This document shows positions 1,772 through 31,129 of a stretch of DNA of 64,000 nucleotides, piece by piece. The DNA lies in IMG/VR virus record IMGVR_UViG_3300036900_000025, positions 14,955 through 78,954 of that record; one strand, written 5' to 3'. Both the position numbers and the translations under genes were made by a program. The DNA comes from a virus. Every line of letters begins with the position of its first letter. Positions within the stretch are counted from its first letter, which is position 1. The notes beneath the pieces are model-generated. The model was given only the letters and a program-made list of their open reading frames with translations. It made no database searches and was not told the DNA's origin.

Positions 1772-1802
1772 TTGACGCGGCATAGGGACGTGTGCCTATG
1801 CT
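1772..1802 (+). promoter_or_regulatory. Promoter for a probable leaderless mRNA (TTGACG-19-TATGCT, ATG 7 nt later)
   Basis: -10 TATGCT at 1797-1802, ATG at 1810, no Shine-Dalgarno. Confidence 0.55.
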
Positions 1803-1809
1803 GTGCGCT

Positions 1810-3174
1810 ATGGGCACCGAAGTCTGGTTTCGGAACCCGGACAACTACGTCCGGGAGCTGGTGGAGTGTGCTCAGGGAAACATCTGCTTCGATCGAGGCT
1901 ACCTCATCAAGCGGAACATCGACGTTCAGAAGTGGGCCGCACTGTACTATGGTGCAGGCCTGAGCTACCGGCTCCTGACTGTCGGTTCGCAGGGTACCGC
2001 CGAGTACCGTCCCGGTTCTGACGATCCTGTGGCGGTCTACCCGACGTGGGCTTACGGCGAAGACTGGGCGATGCTGGAGGAGATTGTCTCCGAGCCGCTC
2101 GGTGAGAACAAGGAGGTTTGCTTTGACACCTCGATCCCAAAAGACGAGCGACCTGTATTCGGTCAAGAGCACCGAGTTGTCGTCGTCGAGCCCCCCAACT
2201 CGAGTTCGGGCCCAGGGCGTCAGTTCCTCCGCAATCTCAAGATCCTCCAAGAGGACTACCCGGACTGCATCGTCCATATCCACGGCCTCTACGGATACAG
2301 AGCAGCCTTCGGACTAGGTCTGGGTGCTGCCGACGTGGAGCCTCGTACTGCTGCACAGAAGGGCAAGGTTCACCTTCCCAGCGGTGGCGAGGCGAAGTTC
2401 GAGAAGGTCCAGTCGCACGCTCAGTGGGTCACAGCGATGGGCTTCACTCCTGGGGACTTGGCGGTCCCTCGGAACCGCTGCATCTACAACATCAAGGCAG
2501 CGATCTGGGCTGGAAAGCACTACACAGAGCTGATCAACGTGAAGGTGAGAGGCGGAAACGCTACTCCCGACATCGTTTCGTCCGAGGTTGCTCACCGGCC
2601 TGCCGAAACGGTACACGGCTTTAGCCTGCCGATCATCAAGCCGAAGGAAGGCGACAAGTTCGCCTGCGACACCTGCAGTTTGTCCGGTACTTGCAAGCAC
2701 TACCGAGAAGGGGCGGTGTGTAGCTTGCCCGAGTCTGAGTCCCGAGAACTCGCAACACACTTCCAGACCCGTGACAGCGGCCTCATCATGGAGGGGCTCT
2801 CGGAGATCACGAGAATGCAAGCTCGTCGAACCGAGCGCGCCATTCAGATCGAAGAGATCGACGGCGATGTTGACGACAAGGTCACGAAGATGCTCAGCGT
2901 GCTGTTCGATCAGGGCAGCAAGCTGGCGAAGCTGATCGACCCGAGCCTTCGGGCACCGGGCGTACAGGTGAACGTGGGAGCAGGTGGGCAGGCATCTGTT
3001 CAGATTACACCACAGCAGGCAATCGCGGCGATCTATCGTGAGCTTGAGGCTCGCGGTGTTCCTCGCAACGAGATCACTCCCGACATGGTAAAGCAGCTGC
3101 TTGGGCAGATGACGCCACAGCAGTCTCACCGAACCATTCCGGGAGAGATAGAGCGTGGCGAGCAGACCGCATAG
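1810..3174 (+). CDS. Degenerate TGT/DpdA-like barrel + Cys4 zinc module + helical C-terminus; candidate terminase small subunit
   Basis: ICFDRGY, HIHG, AADVEP..AAQKG and R..YNI echo the FLDSG/HxxG/SxDSS/R..N order of phage TGT-like proteins; CDTC-x5-C-x8-C; lies upstream of TerL. Confidence 0.5.
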   Translation: MGTEVWFRNPDNYVRELVECAQGNICFDRGYLIKRNIDVQKWAALYYGAGLSYRLLTVGSQGTAEYRPGSDDPVAVYPTWAYGEDWAMLEEIVSEPLGENKEVCFDTSIPKDERPVFGQEHRVVVVEPPNSSSGPGRQFLRNLKILQEDYPDCIVHIHGLYGYRAAFGLGLGAADVEPRTAAQKGKVHLPSGGEAKFEKVQSHAQWVTAMGFTPGDLAVPRNRCIYNIKAAIWAGKHYTELINVKVRGGNATPDIVSSEVAHRPAETVHGFSLPIIKPKEGDKFACDTCSLSGTCKHYREGAVCSLPESESRELATHFQTRDSGLIMEGLSEITRMQARRTERAIQIEEIDGDVDDKVTKMLSVLFDQGSKLAKLIDPSLRAPGVQVNVGAGGQASVQITPQQAIAAIYRELEARGVPRNEITPDMVKQLLGQMTPQQSHRTIPGEIERGEQTA

Positions 3175-14088: not shown

Positions 14089-14131
14089 TACAACCTCAAG
14101 TTCACCATCGACCACGAGAGGGTCACAGAAC

Positions 14132-14686
14132 ATGACCGAGCCACAGACCATTCCCGATCCCCAGGTTGACCTCACCGAAGAGGTCTTCGAGGACTACTTC
14201 GGGTTCGAGGACATCAAGACCTTCGTGCTCCCCAAGAGCAACCCGAAGGCGAAGGATCAGTTCATCTACTTCCGAGTGATGAACGAGGGTGACCGCTCGA
14301 AGTTCCAGTCGAAGGTCAACCGCGACATCACCGTCGTTCGCCAGACTGGCGACGCGAAGATCGGCGCGGACCCGGCTGCAGAGCGGCTGGCTCTCCTGGA
14401 GGCCAGCGTCACCGGCTGGACGCTCAAGCGCAGGACCCGTGACGGCAGCGGCTGGGAGGACGCGCCCTTCTCGATCGGTTCCAAGGGGGACCTGTTCGAG
14501 CAGTGGCTCCAGAAGGCTGACCCCAAGCTGGTCGATGCTCTGGAGATGGAGATTCGCAAGGCGAATCCCTGGATGCAGGCCGACATGACGGTCGAGGACA
14601 TCAACAAGGAGATCGACCGTCTCGTCGAGCTTCGCGAGGGCATCGAGAAGCGCGACGCGGGGGAAGACAGCTCCTCCGGCAAGTAG
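14132..14686 (+). CDS. Tail assembly chaperone, short form (184 aa)
   Basis: Between major tail and tape measure genes; ends just after a GGGGGAA slippery site. Confidence 0.85.
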   Translation: MTEPQTIPDPQVDLTEEVFEDYFGFEDIKTFVLPKSNPKAKDQFIYFRVMNEGDRSKFQSKVNRDITVVRQTGDAKIGADPAAERLALLEASVTGWTLKRRTRDGSGWEDAPFSIGSKGDLFEQWLQKADPKLVDALEMEIRKANPWMQADMTVEDINKEIDRLVELREGIEKRDAGEDSSSGK

Positions 14687-14943
14687 ACGCCTACGTCAAG
14701 GGTGACTCTGTCGAGAACGCTCGCACGATCTTCCGCATCTTCACGTTCTGCGAGAACACTCGATGGTCATGCTTGCCGGTTGCCGGAGGGTACTACGACC
14801 AGCACCCTGAGTTCATTCGTCAATGCAACCTGATCTTCGAGGCGCGTGGCAAGAAGCAGCGCGAAGAGGAGAAGCGTCGCCAACACGAGATGGGCAGAAG
14901 CGCTAAGCCGGGGTCACGAGTCGCTGGTCGCAGGGGTCGCTAA
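14132..14943 (+). CDS. Tail assembly chaperone, -1 frameshift long form (~270 aa)
   Basis: G GGG GAA at 14659-14665; the -1 frame is open to TAA 14943 and reads RQLLRQVDAY...LPVAGGYYDQHPEF. Confidence 0.85.
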
Positions 14944-14951
14944 CTACGGTG

Positions 14952-14994
14952 TCGGGGTCCATGCTTGCGGGCGTGGACCCCGATGCTGTATGGT
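14952..14994 (+). promoter_or_regulatory. 13-bp hairpin overlapping a putative promoter (TTGCGG-18-TATGGT)
   Basis: tcggggtccatgc / gcgtggaccccga; -10 at 14989-14994. Confidence 0.45.
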
Positions 14995-15066
14995 CTGTAC
15001 TCGTCGGGCACTAGAGGCCCATCATGGACTCTAAAGTCTGACTAGGGGCGCGAACTGAACGCCTAC

Positions 15067-18000
15067 ATGAACATTCAGGTCCGGGTGCTGAGCGCCCAGG
15101 CCCAGACCCAGATCAAGGCTCTCGAAGCCGAGCTGGCGCGTCTTCGCACGGAACTTGCAGCCACCAACACTGCCTCCAATGCTGCCAACGCTGCTACCGC
15201 TAGAAGCGTTGGTGGACTCAAGAAGTGGGGCAGTCAGCTCCAGTGGGCAGGTCGGCAGCTTCAGTACAACTTCACGATACCTATTCTCCTGGCAGCAGGA
15301 GCAGCAACAAAGTTCTACATGGACAACCAGAAGGCCCTGGTTGGACTGAAGAAGGTCTATGGCGACCTGGGCATGTCGCAGAGGACCATCAACAACGAGG
15401 TCAAGGCACTCTCGAAGGCCTTCGAGGCTCTTTCTGCGCAGTACGGTGTCCAGCAGAAGCAGGTCATCGAGATCGGCGCAGCGTGGGCACAGGCCGGCGT
15501 TAGCGGTGTAGCCCTCGCTAAGAGTACAGAGCTCACGCTCAAGACGATGGTACTCGGCGAGATGGACTCGACGAAGGCCACTCAGGCTCTCATCGCTATC
15601 CAGGCGCAGTACCGTCTCAGCACGTCAGAACTCACCGATGTCATCGGTCAGCTGAACATCATCGAGAACCAGACCGGTGTGTCACTGGCCGACCTGGTGG
15701 ACGGCTTCTCCCGGACAGCCGGCGTTGCGCGTGCCGCTGGAGTCACGGTCAAGGAACTCGGCGCGATGATGGCTGCTTTGGTACCAGCTGCTGGTACTGC
15801 TGCCCAAGCCGGTAACGCGCTCAAGACGATCTTCTCTCGCCTGCTCTCGCCGACCGCTGAAGCCGCAGATGTCCTGAAGGAAATGGGCATCAACCTCACG
15901 GACACCAGCTGGAAGAGCGCTACGGCAACGCAGCGCCTCGAGATCATGGCAAAGCAGTTCAGCAAGCTGGAAGGCCCCCAGCGTGCCGTAGTCTCCGCCC
16001 TTGTCGCATCTCGCTTCCAGCTCAACAAGTTCGAGATCCTCATGGACTCGATGAACTCGAAGTTCGAGACGTACTACGACAAGGCCAACAAGGCCGTCGA
16101 GCAGACCGACTACATGCGGGTAGCACAGAAGGAGCTTAACCAGGTCCTTCAGAGCGACCCGAAGCGACTTGAGCGTACCTGGGTCATGTTGCAGAACGCT
16201 ATGGCTGACATCATCATCCCGATGATTCCAGCTATCTTGGGTCTGGCTAACATGATCCAGCGACTGGCACAGGCCTTCTCGGACCTCGATCCGACGATCC
16301 AGATGTTCATTATGAGTGCGCTTCTTGCACTCGCAGCTGTTGGTCCGCTAGCAAGGATGATCGGCGCAACGTCTCTGCTCTTCGGTGAGATGAGTAGCGC
16401 GATCAAGTGGGTCGGAGCGAACCTCAAGCTGCTGGTCGGCTGGATCGCAGAGACAGGGCTGGCGATCGGTCGCTTCCTCATCGGTCCGTGGGGACTGGCG
16501 ATTGCTGCGGCCGTTGCGCTGATCGTTGTGTTCCGCAGGCAGATCGAGCAGGCATTCACCAATCTTGTCAACTGGTTCCAGCACTCGGGTTCGGCCTGGG
16601 TGGCGGTGTTCAAGCCGGTTGTGGACTTCTTCGGTGCAGCCGTCGATTACATCGAGAAGGCCTTCAACTCGCTCCCCAACGCAGTTCAGAACGCCCTCAT
16701 GGCGGTTGTTACCATCGTTGCTACAGCAGCGAAGCAGGTCTACGAGTGGCTGTCCTACCTCAACCCATTCGCTCGGCATTCGCCTTCCGTGGTAGACAAC
16801 GTACGCGCTGGCATGGCGGTCATTCGTAACGAGTTCTCTAGCATCGCGTCCATCCACGGGCCGATCGACAAGGCCTACAAGGACATCAAGAGGTTCAGCC
16901 AGGCGACCGCTGCCTTCCGTGGCGGAATGGACACTGCACAGCGGGCACAGGATCGCAAGACTGTAGCCAAGGTTGACCCTGGTGCGCTCCATGCGTTCGA
17001 TGCGCTCGTCGCTGACCTCAAGCAGCTGACTGCCATGATGAATACCTACGAGGCTGCTGTTAAGCGTCAGGAGACAGTGGTTCAGGGGTGGAAGGACAAG
17101 CTCGACGCTGCCAACGCCGAACTGGACAAGCAGCAGAAGAAGCTTGACGATCTCCAGGCGAAGCTTGACAAGTGGCAGAAGAAGCTTGATGATTCGCAGA
17201 CGGCGCTAGCGAACTGGTCGCAGACTCCCATCACCGGCATGAAGGCTATGTCGGATGCGATCTTCTCGAACGAGCAGGCACAGAAGAAGCTTCGCCTCGA
17301 GATGATGAACATGGAGGACGCTGTAGGTCCGATTGACGACTTGCGGGCCCGTTACGCGGCACTCCAGGGCGACATCGAGAACCTCAAGGGCGAGCAGGCA
17401 AACCTGCGTTCGGCTGGTGCAGGTAGCGATATCCTCGCCACCTACGACCAGCAGATCGCTGGTCTGCAGGCGCAGCAACAGGCAACCCAGGACGCCACGA
17501 AGCCGATCGACGACCTCCAGAAGCAGCTGGATGCACTGCAGCGCGAGGGCGAGCGGCTCGACCTCACGAATAGCCTGCAGTTCGATCCACTGACGCGCCA
17601 GATCGAGGCAGCCTCCAACGCGATGCAGGAGATGCCTTTCGATGTCATCATGGCCGGGATCCAGCAGGCTCAGACCGACATCGGCAAGTACCAGGACAAG
17701 GTTGACGCGGCAACGAAGGCGGTCAACGACCAGACTGTCGCTGTCAACAACGCTCAGGCGGCGCGTGACAAGGTATCTGCTAACCTTGACCGCGAGCAGA
17801 AGCAACTTGACGGCCTCCAGCAGAAGTACCAAGATGTCAAGAGCGCGGTCGATGACGTAACAACTGCGCTCAACGACATGGTCAGTGCTAGCAACGACAG
17901 TATTCGTGCAGCGAAGGCCAAGGCTTCCGCAAAGGGTAGCGTTAGCCCAGGTCTGCAGAACTTCCGTGACGCTGCCGGTGGCAAGTTCGCTGATGTCGGT

Positions 18001-20547
18001 GGTTCCGGTGGCTTGGGTCGCGAGGGTTCACAGGCTGACCAGTCGAAACTGATTGATCAGTTCACAGAGGACCTTCGCAAGCGCACTGGTCAGATGTTCG
18101 GCAACGTGGACTTCACTGGACCGTTCCGGCGTGCCTGGAAGAACGTCACTGACTGGTGGACCGCAAACATCACGCCTGCTCTCAGTGCGCTAGGTGGCGA
18201 GGTCGAGCAGGCTTGGGGCAAGATCAGCTTCGATGGTCCGTTGGCTAAGATCACAGCCTTCGGTCATGCCTTCTGGGACCTGTTCGGTGGCGACATTATG
18301 AAGGTCGTCAACGTTCTCAGTGACAACCTGCACAAGGCTATCGTCACCATCGGGCCAGAGCTTGAAGCGTTCAAGGGCCTCATCAAGCCGCTTGGTGATC
18401 TCTTTGTCATGCTGTGGAACGGGATCAAGCCGGTAGCCGAGATCCTTGGGCTGGCGCTCCTGGCAAACCTCAAGCTCGTTGCCGACGTGTTCGCCAACAC
18501 GCTGGGTCCGGTTCTTGACACCGCGATTGACCTGATCGCAGATGTGCTCAAGGCCTTCCGTGGAGTGATCGAGTTCGTCGTCGGTGTGATGACAGGAGAC
18601 TGGGCACTTGCTTGGAAGGGCATCCAGGATACCTTCATGGGTACCTGGGAAGGTATCTACCACATCCTCGAAGGTGCCGTTTCGATCGTCGTAGGCTTCA
18701 TCAAGGGCATCGTGGAGGGTGTGGTCGGCTGGTTCAAGTGGCTCTACGACACCCTGATCGGCCACTCGATCATTCCAGATATCATCAACGGAATCTTCGA
18801 CTGGTTCCACAAGCTTGCTGATCTTCCCGGCTGGATCTACGACCACACCTTGAAGCCGATCTTCGAAGGCATGAGGGACTGGTGGACAAACACCCTCAAG
18901 CCTAAGGTCGATGACATCAGCAGTGGCATCATCGGCTTCTTCCACAAGCTCGGCGATCTGCCGCAGTGGCTCTGGGACAACACCTGGAATGCCCTGTGGA
19001 CCAAGTTGTCGAACTTCTGGGACAACACGCTTCTGCCTGGCGTTCAGGGCATCAAGCAGGGTATCGTTGATCAGTTCCACGCGCTGGGCAACCTGCCGGA
19101 GTGGCTGTACAACAACTCCTTCCTGCCGATCTGGACCAAGCTGAAGGATGTGTGGGACAACTACCTCGTCCCGCTGGGGAACAGGATCCTTCGTGGATTC
19201 GGAAACATCTTCAACGGCGTAGGCGAGGCTGTTGCAGCAGGCGTCAATATCGCAATCGGAGCGATCAACAAGCTGATCGACGGCCTTGACTGGATCGGAT
19301 CCCACGTTCCTGGCCTCAGCTTCAAGGTGTCCAACATCGGCACCTACAGCTTCGAGAAGTGGAGCCCGCCGCAGTACGCGAAGGGTGGCATCCTCCCCAC
19401 TGCTGTCGGTGGCGGCTTTATGACCAATGGTGCTCGGGCCATTGTGGGCGAAGGTGGACCTCACCCAGAGTTCGTCATCCCGACCGATCCACGGCACCGC
19501 AAGAACGCGACCGACCTCCTCGGCAAGGCTGCCGAGAAGCTTGGCGTGGGAGGGATCGGGGACGTGTGGGATAGCATGAAGACTGCAGGGAGCAAGGCTA
19601 CTTCGTTCCTTCGCGAGAATGCAGTCAATGCGATCTTCGCTCCGATCAACGCGGCGGTCAACGCACTGTTGACTCAGGTACCAAGCGAGCTTGGTCTTCG
19701 TGCCTTCGCCAAGTACGGTGTCCAGCAGATCCAGGACTTCGCATCCGGTGTGAACGACCACCTCGTTACCAGTGGACCGTGGGGCAAGCCGGTTGCGCTG
19801 GCGCTGGGACTTCCGTTCGGTAACACGTACTCGGACGGCAGCTTCCACTCTGGCCAGGACTTCCCCGGTCCCATCGGTACGGCGATCAAGGCCGCGAGCG
19901 CTGGTATAGTCAAGGCTTCCTACGACATTCACGGAACCAGTCCGTACAACAACTTCCCGTACGCTTCCTACGGTCGTCTCGTCCAGATCAACCACGGTGA
20001 CGGAATCGAGACGCTCTACGCTCACCTCAGCGAGCGGCTCGTGGAGGCTGGCGACAAGATCAAGACTGGTGACCTCATCGGTCGTCTTGGTGAGATGGGT
20101 AACGCGACCGGGCCTCACCTGCACTTTGAGGTTCGTCGCAACGGTGACCCGATCAACCCGATCCCGTTCCTGGCTGACAAGGGAGTTCGGTACGACGGAG
20201 GCGGCTGGCTACCCCACGGTGGCGTAGGAGTCAACACTTCTGGGATGCCAGAGCCCGTATTCTCTAACCAGCAGTGGAGCACGATCGACCGCGCAACCCG
20301 TGTCTCTATGGCTATGGCGACCACGCTGCCGAACACCATAAAGGACGCTGTGAACGTAGCGGTAGACCGGGCCGTGACGGCAGCGGTGCAGCGTGCTACG
20401 GTCGTGTCGGGCGCGAACGGGACCACGGCGAGCACTCAGGCCGGTGGAGTCACCATCAACATCTACGGAAACCTGGAGATGCCGAACATCACCGACGGAA
20501 CTGACGCAGAGCAGTTCCTGAAGAACCTCGAGAGTCTGGCGGGCTAA
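15067..20547 (+). CDS. Tape measure protein (TP901 type) with C-terminal M23 peptidase
   Basis: 1826 aa helical protein with Trp/Phe repeats; HSGQDF...YGRLV.INHG...YAHL...TGPHLHFEVR. Confidence 0.95.
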   Translation: MNIQVRVLSAQAQTQIKALEAELARLRTELAATNTASNAANAATARSVGGLKKWGSQLQWAGRQLQYNFTIPILLAAGAATKFYMDNQKALVGLKKVYGDLGMSQRTINNEVKALSKAFEALSAQYGVQQKQVIEIGAAWAQAGVSGVALAKSTELTLKTMVLGEMDSTKATQALIAIQAQYRLSTSELTDVIGQLNIIENQTGVSLADLVDGFSRTAGVARAAGVTVKELGAMMAALVPAAGTAAQAGNALKTIFSRLLSPTAEAADVLKEMGINLTDTSWKSATATQRLEIMAKQFSKLEGPQRAVVSALVASRFQLNKFEILMDSMNSKFETYYDKANKAVEQTDYMRVAQKELNQVLQSDPKRLERTWVMLQNAMADIIIPMIPAILGLANMIQRLAQAFSDLDPTIQMFIMSALLALAAVGPLARMIGATSLLFGEMSSAIKWVGANLKLLVGWIAETGLAIGRFLIGPWGLAIAAAVALIVVFRRQIEQAFTNLVNWFQHSGSAWVAVFKPVVDFFGAAVDYIEKAFNSLPNAVQNALMAVVTIVATAAKQVYEWLSYLNPFARHSPSVVDNVRAGMAVIRNEFSSIASIHGPIDKAYKDIKRFSQATAAFRGGMDTAQRAQDRKTVAKVDPGALHAFDALVADLKQLTAMMNTYEAAVKRQETVVQGWKDKLDAANAELDKQQKKLDDLQAKLDKWQKKLDDSQTALANWSQTPITGMKAMSDAIFSNEQAQKKLRLEMMNMEDAVGPIDDLRARYAALQGDIENLKGEQANLRSAGAGSDILATYDQQIAGLQAQQQATQDATKPIDDLQKQLDALQREGERLDLTNSLQFDPLTRQIEAASNAMQEMPFDVIMAGIQQAQTDIGKYQDKVDAATKAVNDQTVAVNNAQAARDKVSANLDREQKQLDGLQQKYQDVKSAVDDVTTALNDMVSASNDSIRAAKAKASAKGSVSPGLQNFRDAAGGKFADVGGSGGLGREGSQADQSKLIDQFTEDLRKRTGQMFGNVDFTGPFRRAWKNVTDWWTANITPALSALGGEVEQAWGKISFDGPLAKITAFGHAFWDLFGGDIMKVVNVLSDNLHKAIVTIGPELEAFKGLIKPLGDLFVMLWNGIKPVAEILGLALLANLKLVADVFANTLGPVLDTAIDLIADVLKAFRGVIEFVVGVMTGDWALAWKGIQDTFMGTWEGIYHILEGAVSIVVGFIKGIVEGVVGWFKWLYDTLIGHSIIPDIINGIFDWFHKLADLPGWIYDHTLKPIFEGMRDWWTNTLKPKVDDISSGIIGFFHKLGDLPQWLWDNTWNALWTKLSNFWDNTLLPGVQGIKQGIVDQFHALGNLPEWLYNNSFLPIWTKLKDVWDNYLVPLGNRILRGFGNIFNGVGEAVAAGVNIAIGAINKLIDGLDWIGSHVPGLSFKVSNIGTYSFEKWSPPQYAKGGILPTAVGGGFMTNGARAIVGEGGPHPEFVIPTDPRHRKNATDLLGKAAEKLGVGGIGDVWDSMKTAGSKATSFLRENAVNAIFAPINAAVNALLTQVPSELGLRAFAKYGVQQIQDFASGVNDHLVTSGPWGKPVALALGLPFGNTYSDGSFHSGQDFPGPIGTAIKAASAGIVKASYDIHGTSPYNNFPYASYGRLVQINHGDGIETLYAHLSERLVEAGDKIKTGDLIGRLGEMGNATGPHLHFEVRRNGDPINPIPFLADKGVRYDGGGWLPHGGVGVNTSGMPEPVFSNQQWSTIDRATRVSMAMATTLPNTIKDAVNVAVDRAVTAAVQRATVVSGANGTTASTQAGGVTINIYGNLEMPNITDGTDAEQFLKNLESLAG

Positions 20548-28327: not shown

Positions 28328-28791
28328 GCGAGCAGCCCATCAAGGGTGACAAGGGAGACAAGGGCGACAAAGGCGCCACAGGGGACACATCTCTTCTCGT
28401 ACACGAAGTGCAACGTCTGGTAACGCTGGTGACGGCGCTCAACAACCGGATGACGCAGTTCCCGGACCGTGAGGAGGTGAAGCACGAGGGGCGCAGTCGG
28501 ATGATTAAGGCACTGGTGTTCGGCGTGGTCCTCATTCTTGTTGCGCAGTTGCTGACGCTTATGACCGTCAGCTACTGCTTTCTCACGCCACAACCAGGCG
28601 ACCCCCACCGGGTTCTCTGCAGTGCTATCCCCGGTTACAACAAGGCCCTCGACGACGGCCAGACACGACTCGACAGGTTTCAGCTTCTGCTAGGACAGAT
28701 CGCGCTGAACAAGAAGCTCAACCGTGAGCAGGACATTCGGCTCGAGATCCTAGAGCAGCAGCTCGCCGATCTGAAGAAGCAGAACCCCTAG
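28324..28791 (+). CDS. Membrane protein with short collagen-like (GDK)n N-terminus
   Basis: KGDKGDKGDKGATGD, central TM segment, Cys pair, coiled coil. Confidence 0.7.
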   Translation: MSEQPIKGDKGDKGDKGATGDTSLLVHEVQRLVTLVTALNNRMTQFPDREEVKHEGRSRMIKALVFGVVLILVAQLLTLMTVSYCFLTPQPGDPHRVLCSAIPGYNKALDDGQTRLDRFQLLLGQIALNKKLNREQDIRLEILEQQLADLKKQNP

Positions 28792-29981
28792 TCCTCGTCA
28801 ATCGCGGACTTCGCCTCGATCGCAACCTTTGGTTCGCCTGTCTTGTAGAAGATCATCGCCTCCACCTGCTTGCGCTGCTCAGGTGTGAGGCGTTGGTCTT
28901 TCTTTAGCTTGTCGAGCTGAGCCATAGTGATCGACACGCCGCCGTACTGCAGGAAGATCTGCGGGCCGACGATGGACTCGATGCGCTCGGGGTCAGCTTG
29001 GCGGCGACGCGAGGACTTGAAGTAGAGCCGATGCGTGTCGGACTCGATCTCGATTAGCTCGCGTTCACGGAGGTCAGTCTCGATCAGCTTGTCCAGCTCT
29101 TCGATCGCAGAGTTGATCGCAGACTGCTGGTAGGTCAGGATTGCGCGTAGGTCGATAGCGTCTTCGGCCTTCTCGATGCCGAAGGTTCCACCTACCGCGA
29201 TGTTCTTTTGCAGCGCTCCGCAGTTGGCTTTGCGGACGCAAAAGCGGCACTCGGCGTTCAGCCGCTCCTCGGATTCGCCCTCTTTCGTAGCCAAGATATC
29301 CTCGGCCTTGCGGAGGATGAAGTTCCAAGTTGCGGTGATCTCTGCACGGGTAAACACGATACCGCTGTCAGTGTGGCGCAGCATGTCGAAGACGACCCAG
29401 ATCGTGTCGTACTCGATGCCCTGCGCCTTGAGCTGGATCGCCGCCGCTAGTGCATAGATTCGCGCCTGTATCTTCTTGGGCAGATCCTGCGGGCGAACGT
29501 CCCAGCGAGACGTCTTGTAGTCAACGACCCGGAACTCCTTCTCGCCGATCTGGTCAAAGCGGTCCCAGATGTAGTTGAGGGGGATCGGACCCGCCGTGGT
29601 CGGGACATCGAAGTGATCCTTGACCTCGCATGAGATCACCTTGATCGGGTAGCCGTATCGCTCCCAGATCGTGCGGTTGTACCAGTTGGTCAGCATCTCG
29701 ATGCCGTCGTGGTAGTCAGGCGTATCGAGATCCGCTGTGCCGAACGTCGTCATGTACGACATGCGGAAGTAGACGAGAAGGTTCTCCAGAGTGTATGGCT
29801 CGGGATTCTCGCTGAGCTTCGTGGCTTTGACGAACAGCTCAAGCGCAGAGTGACACGACGTTCCGAGGCTTGCTGCGGTCCCACCTTCTCCGCGACCTCT
29901 ATTGATCTGTTCTGCTTCGTACCTCGCCATGCACAGTTCTGCAACGTGCAAAGCGGTCGCAGAGAATGACTTAGGAATCAT
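28788..29981 (-). CDS. Cas4/RecB-like PD-(D/E)XK exonuclease
   Basis: FS...C.ARY, GT..H..LE, WDR.D, VVDYKT, Q..IY, CRFC-x5-C. Confidence 0.88.
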   Translation of the reverse strand: MIPKSFSATALHVAELCMARYEAEQINRGRGEGGTAASLGTSCHSALELFVKATKLSENPEPYTLENLLVYFRMSYMTTFGTADLDTPDYHDGIEMLTNWYNRTIWERYGYPIKVISCEVKDHFDVPTTAGPIPLNYIWDRFDQIGEKEFRVVDYKTSRWDVRPQDLPKKIQARIYALAAAIQLKAQGIEYDTIWVVFDMLRHTDSGIVFTRAEITATWNFILRKAEDILATKEGESEERLNAECRFCVRKANCGALQKNIAVGGTFGIEKAEDAIDLRAILTYQQSAINSAIEELDKLIETDLRERELIEIESDTHRLYFKSSRRRQADPERIESIVGPQIFLQYGGVSITMAQLDKLKKDQRLTPEQRKQVEAMIFYKTGEPKVAIEAKSAIDED

Positions 29982-30237
29982 TGTCTATCTCATCCTGTCG
30001 GGTGATGAGTCGGCCAGCCCACACACCGTGAGTGGAGCTGGATCTGTCACGGAACTCGTCACACTGAGCCCGTACGCCACAGCCAAGGCAAACCATCTTG
30101 GCTTCGTTAGCCAGAGACGCCTGGCCACGCGGAGGGAAGAACATCTCGGGGTCTTTGTCTCGACACGCTGCCTGCCCCAACCAGACCTTGTCGTTCGGGT
30201 CGAGCTTAAAGAGGCTAAGCAGCTCCCGAACTACGCT
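29971..30237 (-). CDS. whiB: WhiB-family transcription factor domain (probably expressed as a -1 frameshift fusion)
   Basis: W...AAC...DPEMFFP...AK.VC.GC.V...C...GVWAG; no ATG/GTG/TTG upstream of the conserved Trp. Confidence 0.9.
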   Translation of the reverse strand, partial: SVVRELLSLFKLDPNDKVWLGQAACRDKDPEMFFPPRGQASLANEAKMVCLGCGVRAQCDEFRDRSSSTHGVWAGRLITRQDEIDNDS

Positions 30238-30635
30238 TTTGGGTCGTCAGCGTCCTCGTCAGAAGCAACACCCAGCTCCTGCGCGTCACGAAGAGCATCC
30301 TGACGAGCCAGCTCCTCCGGACTGAGCTCTTGCTTCGCGTCGTAGACGACAGGGCGGAAGTCTGCGCCCTGAGAGAATGGAGTGAAATTCTTGTCTAACG
30401 ACACAACCTCGATCGGAACAGCAGAGTCCTGTTCCGGCGTCGTAGGGTCCTCGCTGAACACCGGCCCCATGTCGGACTCGCCGGTCTGCTTGACCACCTC
30501 GACCTTGACTGCCTGAGGGGTCTGCTTCGGGTCGGGCTGAGAGAACACGTCCACGGCCTGCGATCCGTCAGGCGGCGGCGGCGGGGCGAAAGGGTCTACA
30601 GGCTCCATGTCCCCTGCAGCGGGTGAACTTGGCAT
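30231..30635 (-). CDS. Acidic Pro-rich protein (134 aa) ending DDPKA at a CCCAAAA slippery site
   Basis: GGAGG RBS 9 nt before ATG 30635. Confidence 0.75.
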   Translation of the reverse strand: MPSSPAAGDMEPVDPFAPPPPPDGSQAVDVFSQPDPKQTPQAVKVEVVKQTGESDMGPVFSEDPTTPEQDSAVPIEVVSLDKNFTPFSQGADFRPVVYDAKQELSPEELARQDALRDAQELGVASDEDADDPKA

Positions 30636-30697
30636 CAGTGCTAGCCTCCGTGGTGGTGTCGGGCGCGGTGCTGGCATGGTAGCCCATCGGGCCGGTA

Positions 30698-31129
30698 GTG
30701 TGGTACCGACACGCGCAGGATAGGAGACAATCGGTGCAGCCAGCCGTACAGGACATCACCGTTCGGCAAGGTGACCGATTCGACCTCTTCGTGCGTCTGC
30801 GCCAGAAGGTCTGGAATCCAGCGCTCAACGGTGGTGCGGGCGACTGGGAACCAGGCCCCTACGTTGACCTCACCGGCAAGACCGTTCGCAGCCAGGTCCG
30901 CAACACTGCCGACGACACGACGGTCCGAGCAACCTTCACTCCGACCATCAGTGATCAGGTCACTCTCAAGGGTGGCTGCCTCCTTACACTCTTTCCGGTG
31001 GACACCAGGGCCCTCATCGTCAACGCAGTCTACGACGTGGAGGTCGAGACGACTGCGACTCCAACCGACACCGAGACGTTCCTCGAGGGGGCGATCACAC
31101 TCAAGAAGGAGATCACCCGCGTACCGTGA
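30698..31129 (+). CDS. Beta-sandwich virion adaptor (BppU-N-like)
   Basis: I...QGD.F...VDLTG.T...QVR...L.L...T......YDVE...T.LEG.I....IT. Confidence 0.65.
   Translation: MWYRHAQDRRQSVQPAVQDITVRQGDRFDLFVRLRQKVWNPALNGGAGDWEPGPYVDLTGKTVRSQVRNTADDTTVRATFTPTISDQVTLKGGCLLTLFPVDTRALIVNAVYDVEVETTATPTDTETFLEGAITLKKEITRVP

Follow-up and report, generated by a model that had tools for sequence, protein, structure and literature searches.

The window analysed here is a 64-kb stretch (64,000 nucleotides, nt) of DNA from an uncultivated soil phage, comprising positions 14955-78954 of the 78,954-bp IMG/VR virus record IMGVR_UViG_3300036900_000025, which derives from a metagenome assembly and is rated complete. 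Its minus strand carries, in this order, an open reading frame (ORF) for an acidic protein, here called ORF-A, a frame encoding a WhiB domain, and a gene for a Cas4/PD-(D/E)XK exonuclease; features below lie on this strand unless marked (+). The WhiB frame is at -1 relative to ORF-A. From the arrangement of the two frames and its conservation in related phages, we consider it very probable that a programmed -1 ribosomal frameshift yields two products from this locus, an acidic protein of 134 amino acids (aa) and a 221-aa fusion of the acidic domain to WhiB.

ORF-A (30231..30635) runs from ATG 30635 to TAG 30233-30231, and its 3' end reads GAC GAC CCA AAA GCG TAG. The 134-aa protein is its likely product, as the initial annotation of the locus had it: an alternative start at ATG 30677 would add 14 residues (148 aa), but we prefer ATG 30635 because a Shine-Dalgarno (SD) sequence, GGAGG (30645..30649, read from the sequence, 9 nt 5' of the ATG), precedes this start only, and because P0002, a homologue from another assembly, starts at the equivalent methionine. 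The predicted protein is strongly acidic and rich in proline, with an isoelectric point of 4.05, 28 aspartate and glutamate residues and 20 prolines (15% proline). Its AlphaFold model, which is of low confidence (predicted template modelling score 0.20) and was not used for fold searches, is mostly disordered with one helix (residues 106-120). While no Pfam or PHROG family matched ORF-A, two homologues were found in other assemblies, P0002 (83% identical) and P0003 (55%), both of which end in ...PKA-stop. ORF-A also has in common with its relatives an N-terminal domain (N-domain) with the motif [IV]x[VI]xS[WF]D ... DFRP and, in the alignments, an acidic run that ends in D/A-P-K at the putative slip site. 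Multiple alignments place the ORF-A N-domain against the pre-slip parts of the relatives; in pairwise BLASTP, the match to TIN4 gp37 is weak (E 0.013) and that to MrWormie gp43 is not significant, and the homology is suggested by the DFRP motif, synteny and the multiple alignments.

The junction between the two frames is narrowly defined. Upstream, the WhiB frame is closed by a TGA (30247..30249), which lies two codons before the slippery heptamer C CCA AAA (30237..30243), itself in phase with ORF-A. After the TGA, the -1 frame continues as CGA CCC AAA AGC GTA GTT..., with a translation that opens RPKSVVR and reaches the first conserved cysteine (Cys1, codon 30165-30163) as WLGQAAC. The frames can be joined only within a 16-nt interval, which is filled by the heptamer, and CCCAAAA occurs three times in the window, counting both strands. 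The -1-frame part of the predicted trans-frame protein spans 29971..30243, reading ...DDPK|SVVRELLSLFKLDPNDKVW... and then the WhiB domain up to the stop TAA 29973-29971; the whole protein would have 221 aa and a mass of 24.0 kDa. Reading the sequence again thus confirmed the anatomy described in the initial annotation, namely a WhiB frame at -1, a TGA before it, a heptamer in phase, and a TTG that follows the conserved tryptophan. This TTG (30178..30180), the codon directly after the tryptophan, is the sole ATG, GTG or TTG between the TGA and Cys1 in the WhiB frame. The earlier statement that it is the only standard start holds, as does its position after the tryptophan, but the claim that it lacks a ribosome-binding site needs a small correction, as a weak AAGG lies 5 nt 5' of it. 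Homology reaches further upstream, however: tblastn matches begin at residues 11-13 of the -1 read and PHROG WhiB profiles align from residues 15-19, which places WhiB homology 8-12 codons upstream of TTG 30180. A start at this TTG is disfavoured because the product would be without Trp22, the counterpart of WhiB1 Trp3, and without the conserved residues that precede it.

The -1 read carries a complete WhiB domain. It is intact over 91 codons, and its WhiB domain (Pfam PF02467, 30013..30183, from Trp 30183-30181) matches at 56.8 bits against a cut-off of 23.6 (E 3.4e-15), with FFP and GVWAG motifs and four cysteines (C28, C53, C56 and C62 of the 91-aa read) spaced as C-x24-C-x2-C-x5-C. Alignment with WhiB structural homologues (PDB 8dy7_H and 6ono_A) matches W22, F36-F37 and W76 of the window protein to Trp3, Phe17, Phe18 and Trp60 of WhiB1, with the turn GVWAG in place of G[VI]WGG. 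With the W3A substitution, WhiB1 of Mycobacterium tuberculosis shows a severe loss of its [4Fe-4S] cluster and no longer binds sigma-A, and growth is impaired (PMC6954389). Judged by this homology, the window WhiB should hold a [4Fe-4S] cluster on its four cysteines and bind the primary sigma factor of the host at its region 4. The AlphaFold model of the WhiB read has a mean predicted local distance difference test (pLDDT) score of 62, which is low confidence, and was likewise kept out of fold searches. A Pfam search found no other WhiB in the genome.

Evidence for a frameshift also comes from related phages. Blastn of the locus gave 0 matches among 50,697 phage records, metagenome scans, and viral-contig scans for which the queries were the WhiB read, P0003 and P0002, gave no match in collections that may lack near relatives, and a homologous-protein search with the 91-aa WhiB read returned 0 candidates. 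By tblastn, the -1 read matched 170 phage records. Most are from phages of Gordonia, Tsukamurella and Rhodococcus with genomes of 72-83 kb, in which WhiB lies at about the same map position as in the window; the alignments set in 10-12 codons ahead of the TTG and in many cases run across two annotated genes. We compared 17 syntenic relatives, consisting of 13 GenBank phages from at least 10 genera or lineages and four IMG/VR contigs found via the Cas4 neighbour, and used an ordinary mycobacteriophage WhiB, that of Bryler, as a control. All 17 have an upstream ORF with the N-domain (DFRP or a variant), WhiB at -1 and Cas4 close downstream, and all 17 carry an in-phase C CCA AAA or C CCT TTA where conservation of the -1 frame begins. 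The heptamer C CCA AAA is present in the same phase in Reynauld, Mbo2, Orchid, Camerico, GordTnk2, GMA3, L016-L019 and L021. In the CCCTTTA group, the codons CCT and TTA, which are rare in high-GC genomes, are conserved nonetheless. A canonical start at or before the tryptophan occurs in three of the 17 only: in GordTnk2 and GMA3 it is an ATG that precedes the tryptophan by four codons and is annotated in their records as the WhiB start, and in Orchid a GTG 34 codons before Cys1. In these three the heptamer is the very point at which the -1 frame opens, and the starts lie downstream of it, within conserved -1-frame sequence. Relatives that combine an independent start with loss of the heptamer, which the initial annotation had named as the observation that would speak against recoding, were thus not found. 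The control WhiB (Bryler gp54) has a normal GTG start. Among four close relatives, substitutions follow a three-base periodicity, which is that of frame 0 ahead of the site and that of the WhiB frame beyond the ORF-A stop, while the codon-position test within the overlap is weak (10/10/15 variable sites). The Cas4-family exonuclease adjoins WhiB directly in the window and in most relatives, and its synteny is kept in every relative examined. The probable recoding of WhiB seems to be conserved across well over a hundred sequenced actinophages.

None of the GenBank records of these relatives annotates a frameshift. The gene is given as a 33-aa "WhiB", is started inside the conserved -1-frame sequence, or is missing altogether; annotated internal starts follow the tryptophan by one codon in Hollow and Reynauld, whereas those of GordTnk2 and GMA3 precede it by a few codons. 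Stub annotations or gaps are seen in MrWormie (L001, 2621-2722), Butterball (L004, 1621-1722), TIN4 (L002, 2553-2730) and HayZem (L007, 1487-1702), in which a 33-aa "WhiB" or hypothetical stub begins at an internal ATG after Cys1 or the WhiB region is left unannotated. RefSeq and PHROG (phrog_6890) call the upstream ORF an "endonuclease", a label that looks as if it had been carried over from the neighbouring Cas4 gene.

A census of WhiB loci provides a control for the association between the slippery site and the absence of a start. The best 80 WhiB loci in IMG/VR were fetched with an alignment of -1 products and scored blind with one script; several of the loci without a start belong to genomes already included among the GenBank and Cas4-derived relatives. 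Of the 80, 17 lacked a start at or upstream of the tryptophan, and every one of these 17 had an in-phase A/T-type heptamer together with an overlapping upstream ORF (CCCTTTA in 10, CCCAAAA in five and GGGAAAA in two). Among the 63 loci with a start, an A/T-type heptamer was found in two, which are duplicates of each other and in which it lies next to an 18-codon ORF. Lack of a start and presence of a slippery site are therefore almost perfectly associated.

Compared with most of its relatives, the window carries a shortened version of this gene. In the relatives, the -1 frame right after the heptamer encodes a four-cysteine (Cys4) module, P(K/F)R..C(T/S)G.C..L ... C.CGEG, followed by the WhiB domain. 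The window product is 40-44% identical to those of L016-L019, with a single gap of ~42 aa where those carry the module; the alignment sets PKSVV|RELLSLFKL..W of the window against PKRLV-C..C...CGEG...KREWVANFIR..W. Because the Cys4 module (CxGxC ... CxCGEG) is absent from the window, as it is from L021, L057 and L070, we regard the window as a short-linker variant and not a typical member of the N-domain-Cys4-WhiB fusions. Its zero frame stops one codon past the heptamer, as against 50-80 codons later in most relatives, and its N-terminal acidic part is longer than in the Cys4-bearing phages. L021 holds the closest WhiB read retrieved (42%, E 2e-24), has a Cas4 start closely resembling that of the window, and has CCCAAAA 23 codons before Cys1. 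L057 (1438-1444) and L070 (1447-1453) have G GGA AAA instead, and their zero frames end in GKVPPA-stop six codons past the heptamer, with a final GCG TAG as in the window.

Taken together, the heptamer and frame relation in the relatives, the loss of the tryptophan in any product started at the TTG, and a check for assembly errors described below support the proposal of a programmed -1 frameshift that had been made from the sequence of this locus by itself. We infer slippage itself, its efficiency, the roles of possible stimulators and the functions of both products from these patterns, and the following mechanism is proposed in that sense. Ribosomes would start ORF-A at ATG 30635, and most would end at TAG 30233, releasing the acidic, proline-rich and predicted disordered 134-aa protein. 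A fraction would slip back one base on C CCA AAA (30243-30237), with the Pro-tRNA re-pairing from CCA to CCC and the Lys-tRNA from AAA to AAA, and would go on in the -1 frame to TAA 29971; the slip could be aided by an SD-like element upstream and a hairpin downstream. The fusion would then consist of ORF-A residues 1-133, a 20-residue linker and a complete WhiB domain. With the acidic N-terminal part present in both products, the slip rate would fix their ratio. The initial annotation spoke of an abundant 134-aa protein and a minor fusion, which was a guess, as the ratio is not derivable from sequence. The junction peptide it proposed, DADDPKSVVR, is unsuited to digestion with trypsin, which cuts at the Lys-Ser junction of the trans-frame protein, and calls for Asp-N or Glu-C; the predicted junction peptide would be DPKSVVRELLSLFKL or similar.

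The sequences C_CC.A_AA.A and C_CC.U_UU.A are known to be frameshift-prone and are under-represented in E. coli genes (PMC4066793). Candidate stimulators flank the window heptamer on both sides. On the 5' side, an SD-like GAGG (30254..30257) lies 9-10 nt from the heptamer and could form a duplex of -5.9 kcal/mol with the anti-SD sequence. Across the family, SD-like elements within 22 nt before the heptamer average -8.2 kcal/mol against a background of -4.0 kcal/mol (Mann-Whitney p 1.7e-6, for 17 related sequences that are not independent), an enrichment that is suggestive only of a stimulator signal. In the CCCTTTA group (L001, L002, L004-L007 and L014), conserved Gly-Gly codons GGNGGN (such as GGGGGG, GGTGG or GGAGG) stand 5-6 nt before C CCT TTA, and at this fixed distance they may act as an SD-like frameshift stimulator. 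On the 3' side, a hairpin (30193..30231) begins 5 nt past the heptamer, with a 7-bp outer stem in which GUUCGGG (30231-30225) pairs with CCCGAAC (30199-30193), a 4x4 internal loop, a 6-bp inner stem and a 5-nt loop.

A number of observations weigh against the frameshift or against the part given to its stimulators. The hairpin exists as first described, with its 5-nt spacer and an energy of -18.1 kcal/mol, but it is neither statistically distinctive nor conserved: its energy is only slightly better than that of shuffled sequences (z-score -1.8), 9 of 200 of which fold as well, it is missing from the minimum free energy fold of a 141-nt context (z -0.1), and no conserved downstream structure is present in the relatives, for which RNAalifold on the ten of CCCAAAA type gave -0.4 kcal/mol. 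The SD-like signal may derive in part from the content of Gly, Glu and Asp codons. A second C CCA AAA, at 2136-2142 (+), is in phase in an unrelated 460-aa ORF (1792..3174, ...DTSIPKDERP...), where the -1 frame stays open for ~60 codons. It may be there by chance, and because of it an in-phase heptamer cannot by itself be taken as proof of use. In the sub-lineage of P0002 and P0003, conservation of the heptamer is suggested by the protein ending only.

An alternative explanation is that WhiB is made alone, as a 69-aa protein from TTG 30180, either de novo or by re-initiation 51 nt past TAG 30233, with the heptamer being a relic or a coincidence. No other canonical start is available to the WhiB frame, and the Pfam WhiB model loses only its first position if this TTG is used. 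Hollow and Reynauld have a GTG or ATG at the same position, which the annotators of those genomes used, and this likewise counts against recoding; yet in both of them the heptamer is retained and the conserved Cys4 peptide of the -1 frame precedes the annotated start, and a start is missing at this position from most relatives, among them L021, the closest that was retrieved. The product would also be deprived of the residue matching WhiB1 Trp3, on which a stable cluster and binding to sigma-A depend (PMC6954389), homology extends beyond the TTG on its upstream side, and the SD sequence is weak. We therefore think it unlikely that the TTG accounts for WhiB at this locus, while an additional WhiB-only isoform may be made from it. 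Another explanation sees the WhiB frame as a decaying remnant, unexpressed in a lineage that has already lost the Cys4 module. Loss of this ~42-aa module does indicate that the window lineage has been remodelled, but a frame that is intact over 91 codons with its four cysteines, FFP and GVWAG, that encodes the sole WhiB of the genome, and that has counterparts of the same layout in the other short forms (L021, L057 and L070) makes decay very improbable.

Two further possibilities would give the same fusion protein by other means. The metagenomic origin of the sequence and the position of the frame break at a short homopolymer could point to a sequencing or assembly indel in the A-run, in which case the true gene would be a single in-frame ORF-A-WhiB fusion. 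This was raised as a caveat when the locus was first described, and the check found nothing in its favour. The ...PKA-stop ending recurs in P0002 and P0003, which come from other assemblies. A Logan contig from a soil run that may be the source sample matches the window exactly at this point, at ~9x depth and free of indels, all 17 relatives, isolate genomes among them, need the same -1 shift, and a HMMER search over 1.8 billion representative proteins found no fused form, all of which leaves an indel extremely improbable. The sequencing runs found to hold the stretch amount to one DNA run (possibly the source sample), with no RNA run listed. Alternatively, RNA polymerase could slip on the A-run and produce a subpopulation of mRNA in which the ORFs are in frame, as is known in some bacterial and phage genes. 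Known transcriptional slippage needs runs of ~7 or more A or T, however, and there are only four A's in the window and three T's in the CCCTTTA relatives. The strict X XXY YYZ phasing seen in all members matters for tRNA re-pairing and not for polymerase slippage, and we give the polymerase very little chance of being the source of the shift.

The programmed ribosomal frameshift that we favour can be compared with several known systems. The nearest are siphophages of Gordonia, Rhodococcus and Tsukamurella (~72-83 kb) in the genera Woesvirus, Montyvirus, Tinduovirus, Demosthenesvirus, Orchidvirus, Gordtnkvirus and Gamtrevirus, together with Reynauld, Mbo2 and Camerico. The window resembles them in the order of a DFRP ORF, WhiB at -1 and Cas4, in a heptamer (C CCA AAA or C CCT TTA) within a D/A-P-K context, and in the lack of a start, and differs from them by the absence of the ~42-aa Cys4 module, a zero frame that ends one codon past the heptamer, and a longer acidic part. 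Stand-alone WhiB-like (Wbl) proteins, such as Mycobacterium phage Bryler gp54, M. tuberculosis WhiB1 and Streptomyces WhiB, have the same four cysteines, the same aromatic patch (Trp/Phe-Phe/Trp) and the G[VI]W[GA]G turn, but have their own start a few residues before the tryptophan (Bryler, and 63 of the 80 IMG/VR loci) and no N-terminal fusion partner.

Outside the WhiB family, transposases of the IS3 family (IS911, IS3 and IS150) make OrfA and OrfAB by a -1 slip at X XXY YYZ near the end of the first ORF. The likeness extends to a start-less second domain that becomes fused, an N-terminus common to both products, and stimulators that are SD-like upstream and structural downstream, for which the window has candidates (compare PMC4066793). 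Here the second domain is a WhiB iron-sulfur (Fe-S) regulator and not a DDE transposase, and neither inverted repeats nor a mobile element are present; the likeness is one of functional analogy, not homology. The dnaX gene of E. coli has an SD-like sequence ~10 nt upstream of its heptamer and a hairpin ~5-6 nt downstream, a layout of signals similar to that in the window. In dnaX (tau/gamma), however, the shifted ribosome stops almost at once and makes the shorter product, whereas in the window it is the unshifted ribosome that stops and the shifted one that would add a domain. Tail assembly chaperones G/GT, in lambda and in actinophages, arise from a conserved -1 frameshift that fixes the ratio of a pair of proteins sharing their N-terminus; they differ from the case of WhiB in their structural or assembly function and in their locus, with the putative WhiB slip lying in an early or regulatory gene block.

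To our knowledge, tail assembly chaperones are the only frameshifts routinely annotated in tailed phages. Unlike these, the recoding of WhiB appears to control a transcription regulator. A full-text search, with most subscription journals outside its scope, found no papers linking WhiB to frameshifting in phages. What is new here is the class of gene, a sigma-A-binding Fe-S regulator, along with the minimal form that has no Cys4 module; the mechanism, a classical bacterial -1 frameshift, is known. We raise, as a tentative idea drawn from the IS911 OrfA/OrfAB analogy, that the free 134-aa form and the WhiB-tethered form could be a regulator/counter-regulator pair acting on the host RNA polymerase, that such loci could be a widespread and unannotated class of early-gene recoding, and that the Cys4 module could be dispensable, leaving the N-domain, the heptamer and WhiB as the minimal unit. 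In this regard the short variant would narrow the essentials to these elements. If the frameshift is confirmed, the WhiB annotations in GenBank could be corrected, a regulatory example would be added to the catalogue of bacterial recoding, and a testable system would be available in culturable Gordonia and Rhodococcus phages, which could throw light on the dosage of a sigma-A-binding Fe-S protein by a phage and on the role of the acidic domain attached to it.

Around the locus, a scan of 29800-31000 for promoters and terminators found none. The Cas4/PD-(D/E)XK exonuclease gene (28788..29981), the conserved neighbour 3' of WhiB, begins at ATG 29981, and its first 11 nt are also the last of the WhiB frame (29971-29981, minus strand, ATGATTCCTAA). 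Because of this overlap, translation of Cas4 may be coupled to the frameshifted ribosomes, and not to those ending at the ORF-A stop ~250 nt upstream. Elsewhere in the window, a pair resembling tail assembly chaperones is located at ~14130-15060 (+), before an 1826-aa ORF (15067..20547). Its G-like ORF ends in ...AGEDSSSGK-TAG (14684-14686) and is followed by a -1-frame extension of ~100 codons; this region has no canonical X XXY YYZ heptamer, and the sole candidate is G GGG GAA at 14659-14665.

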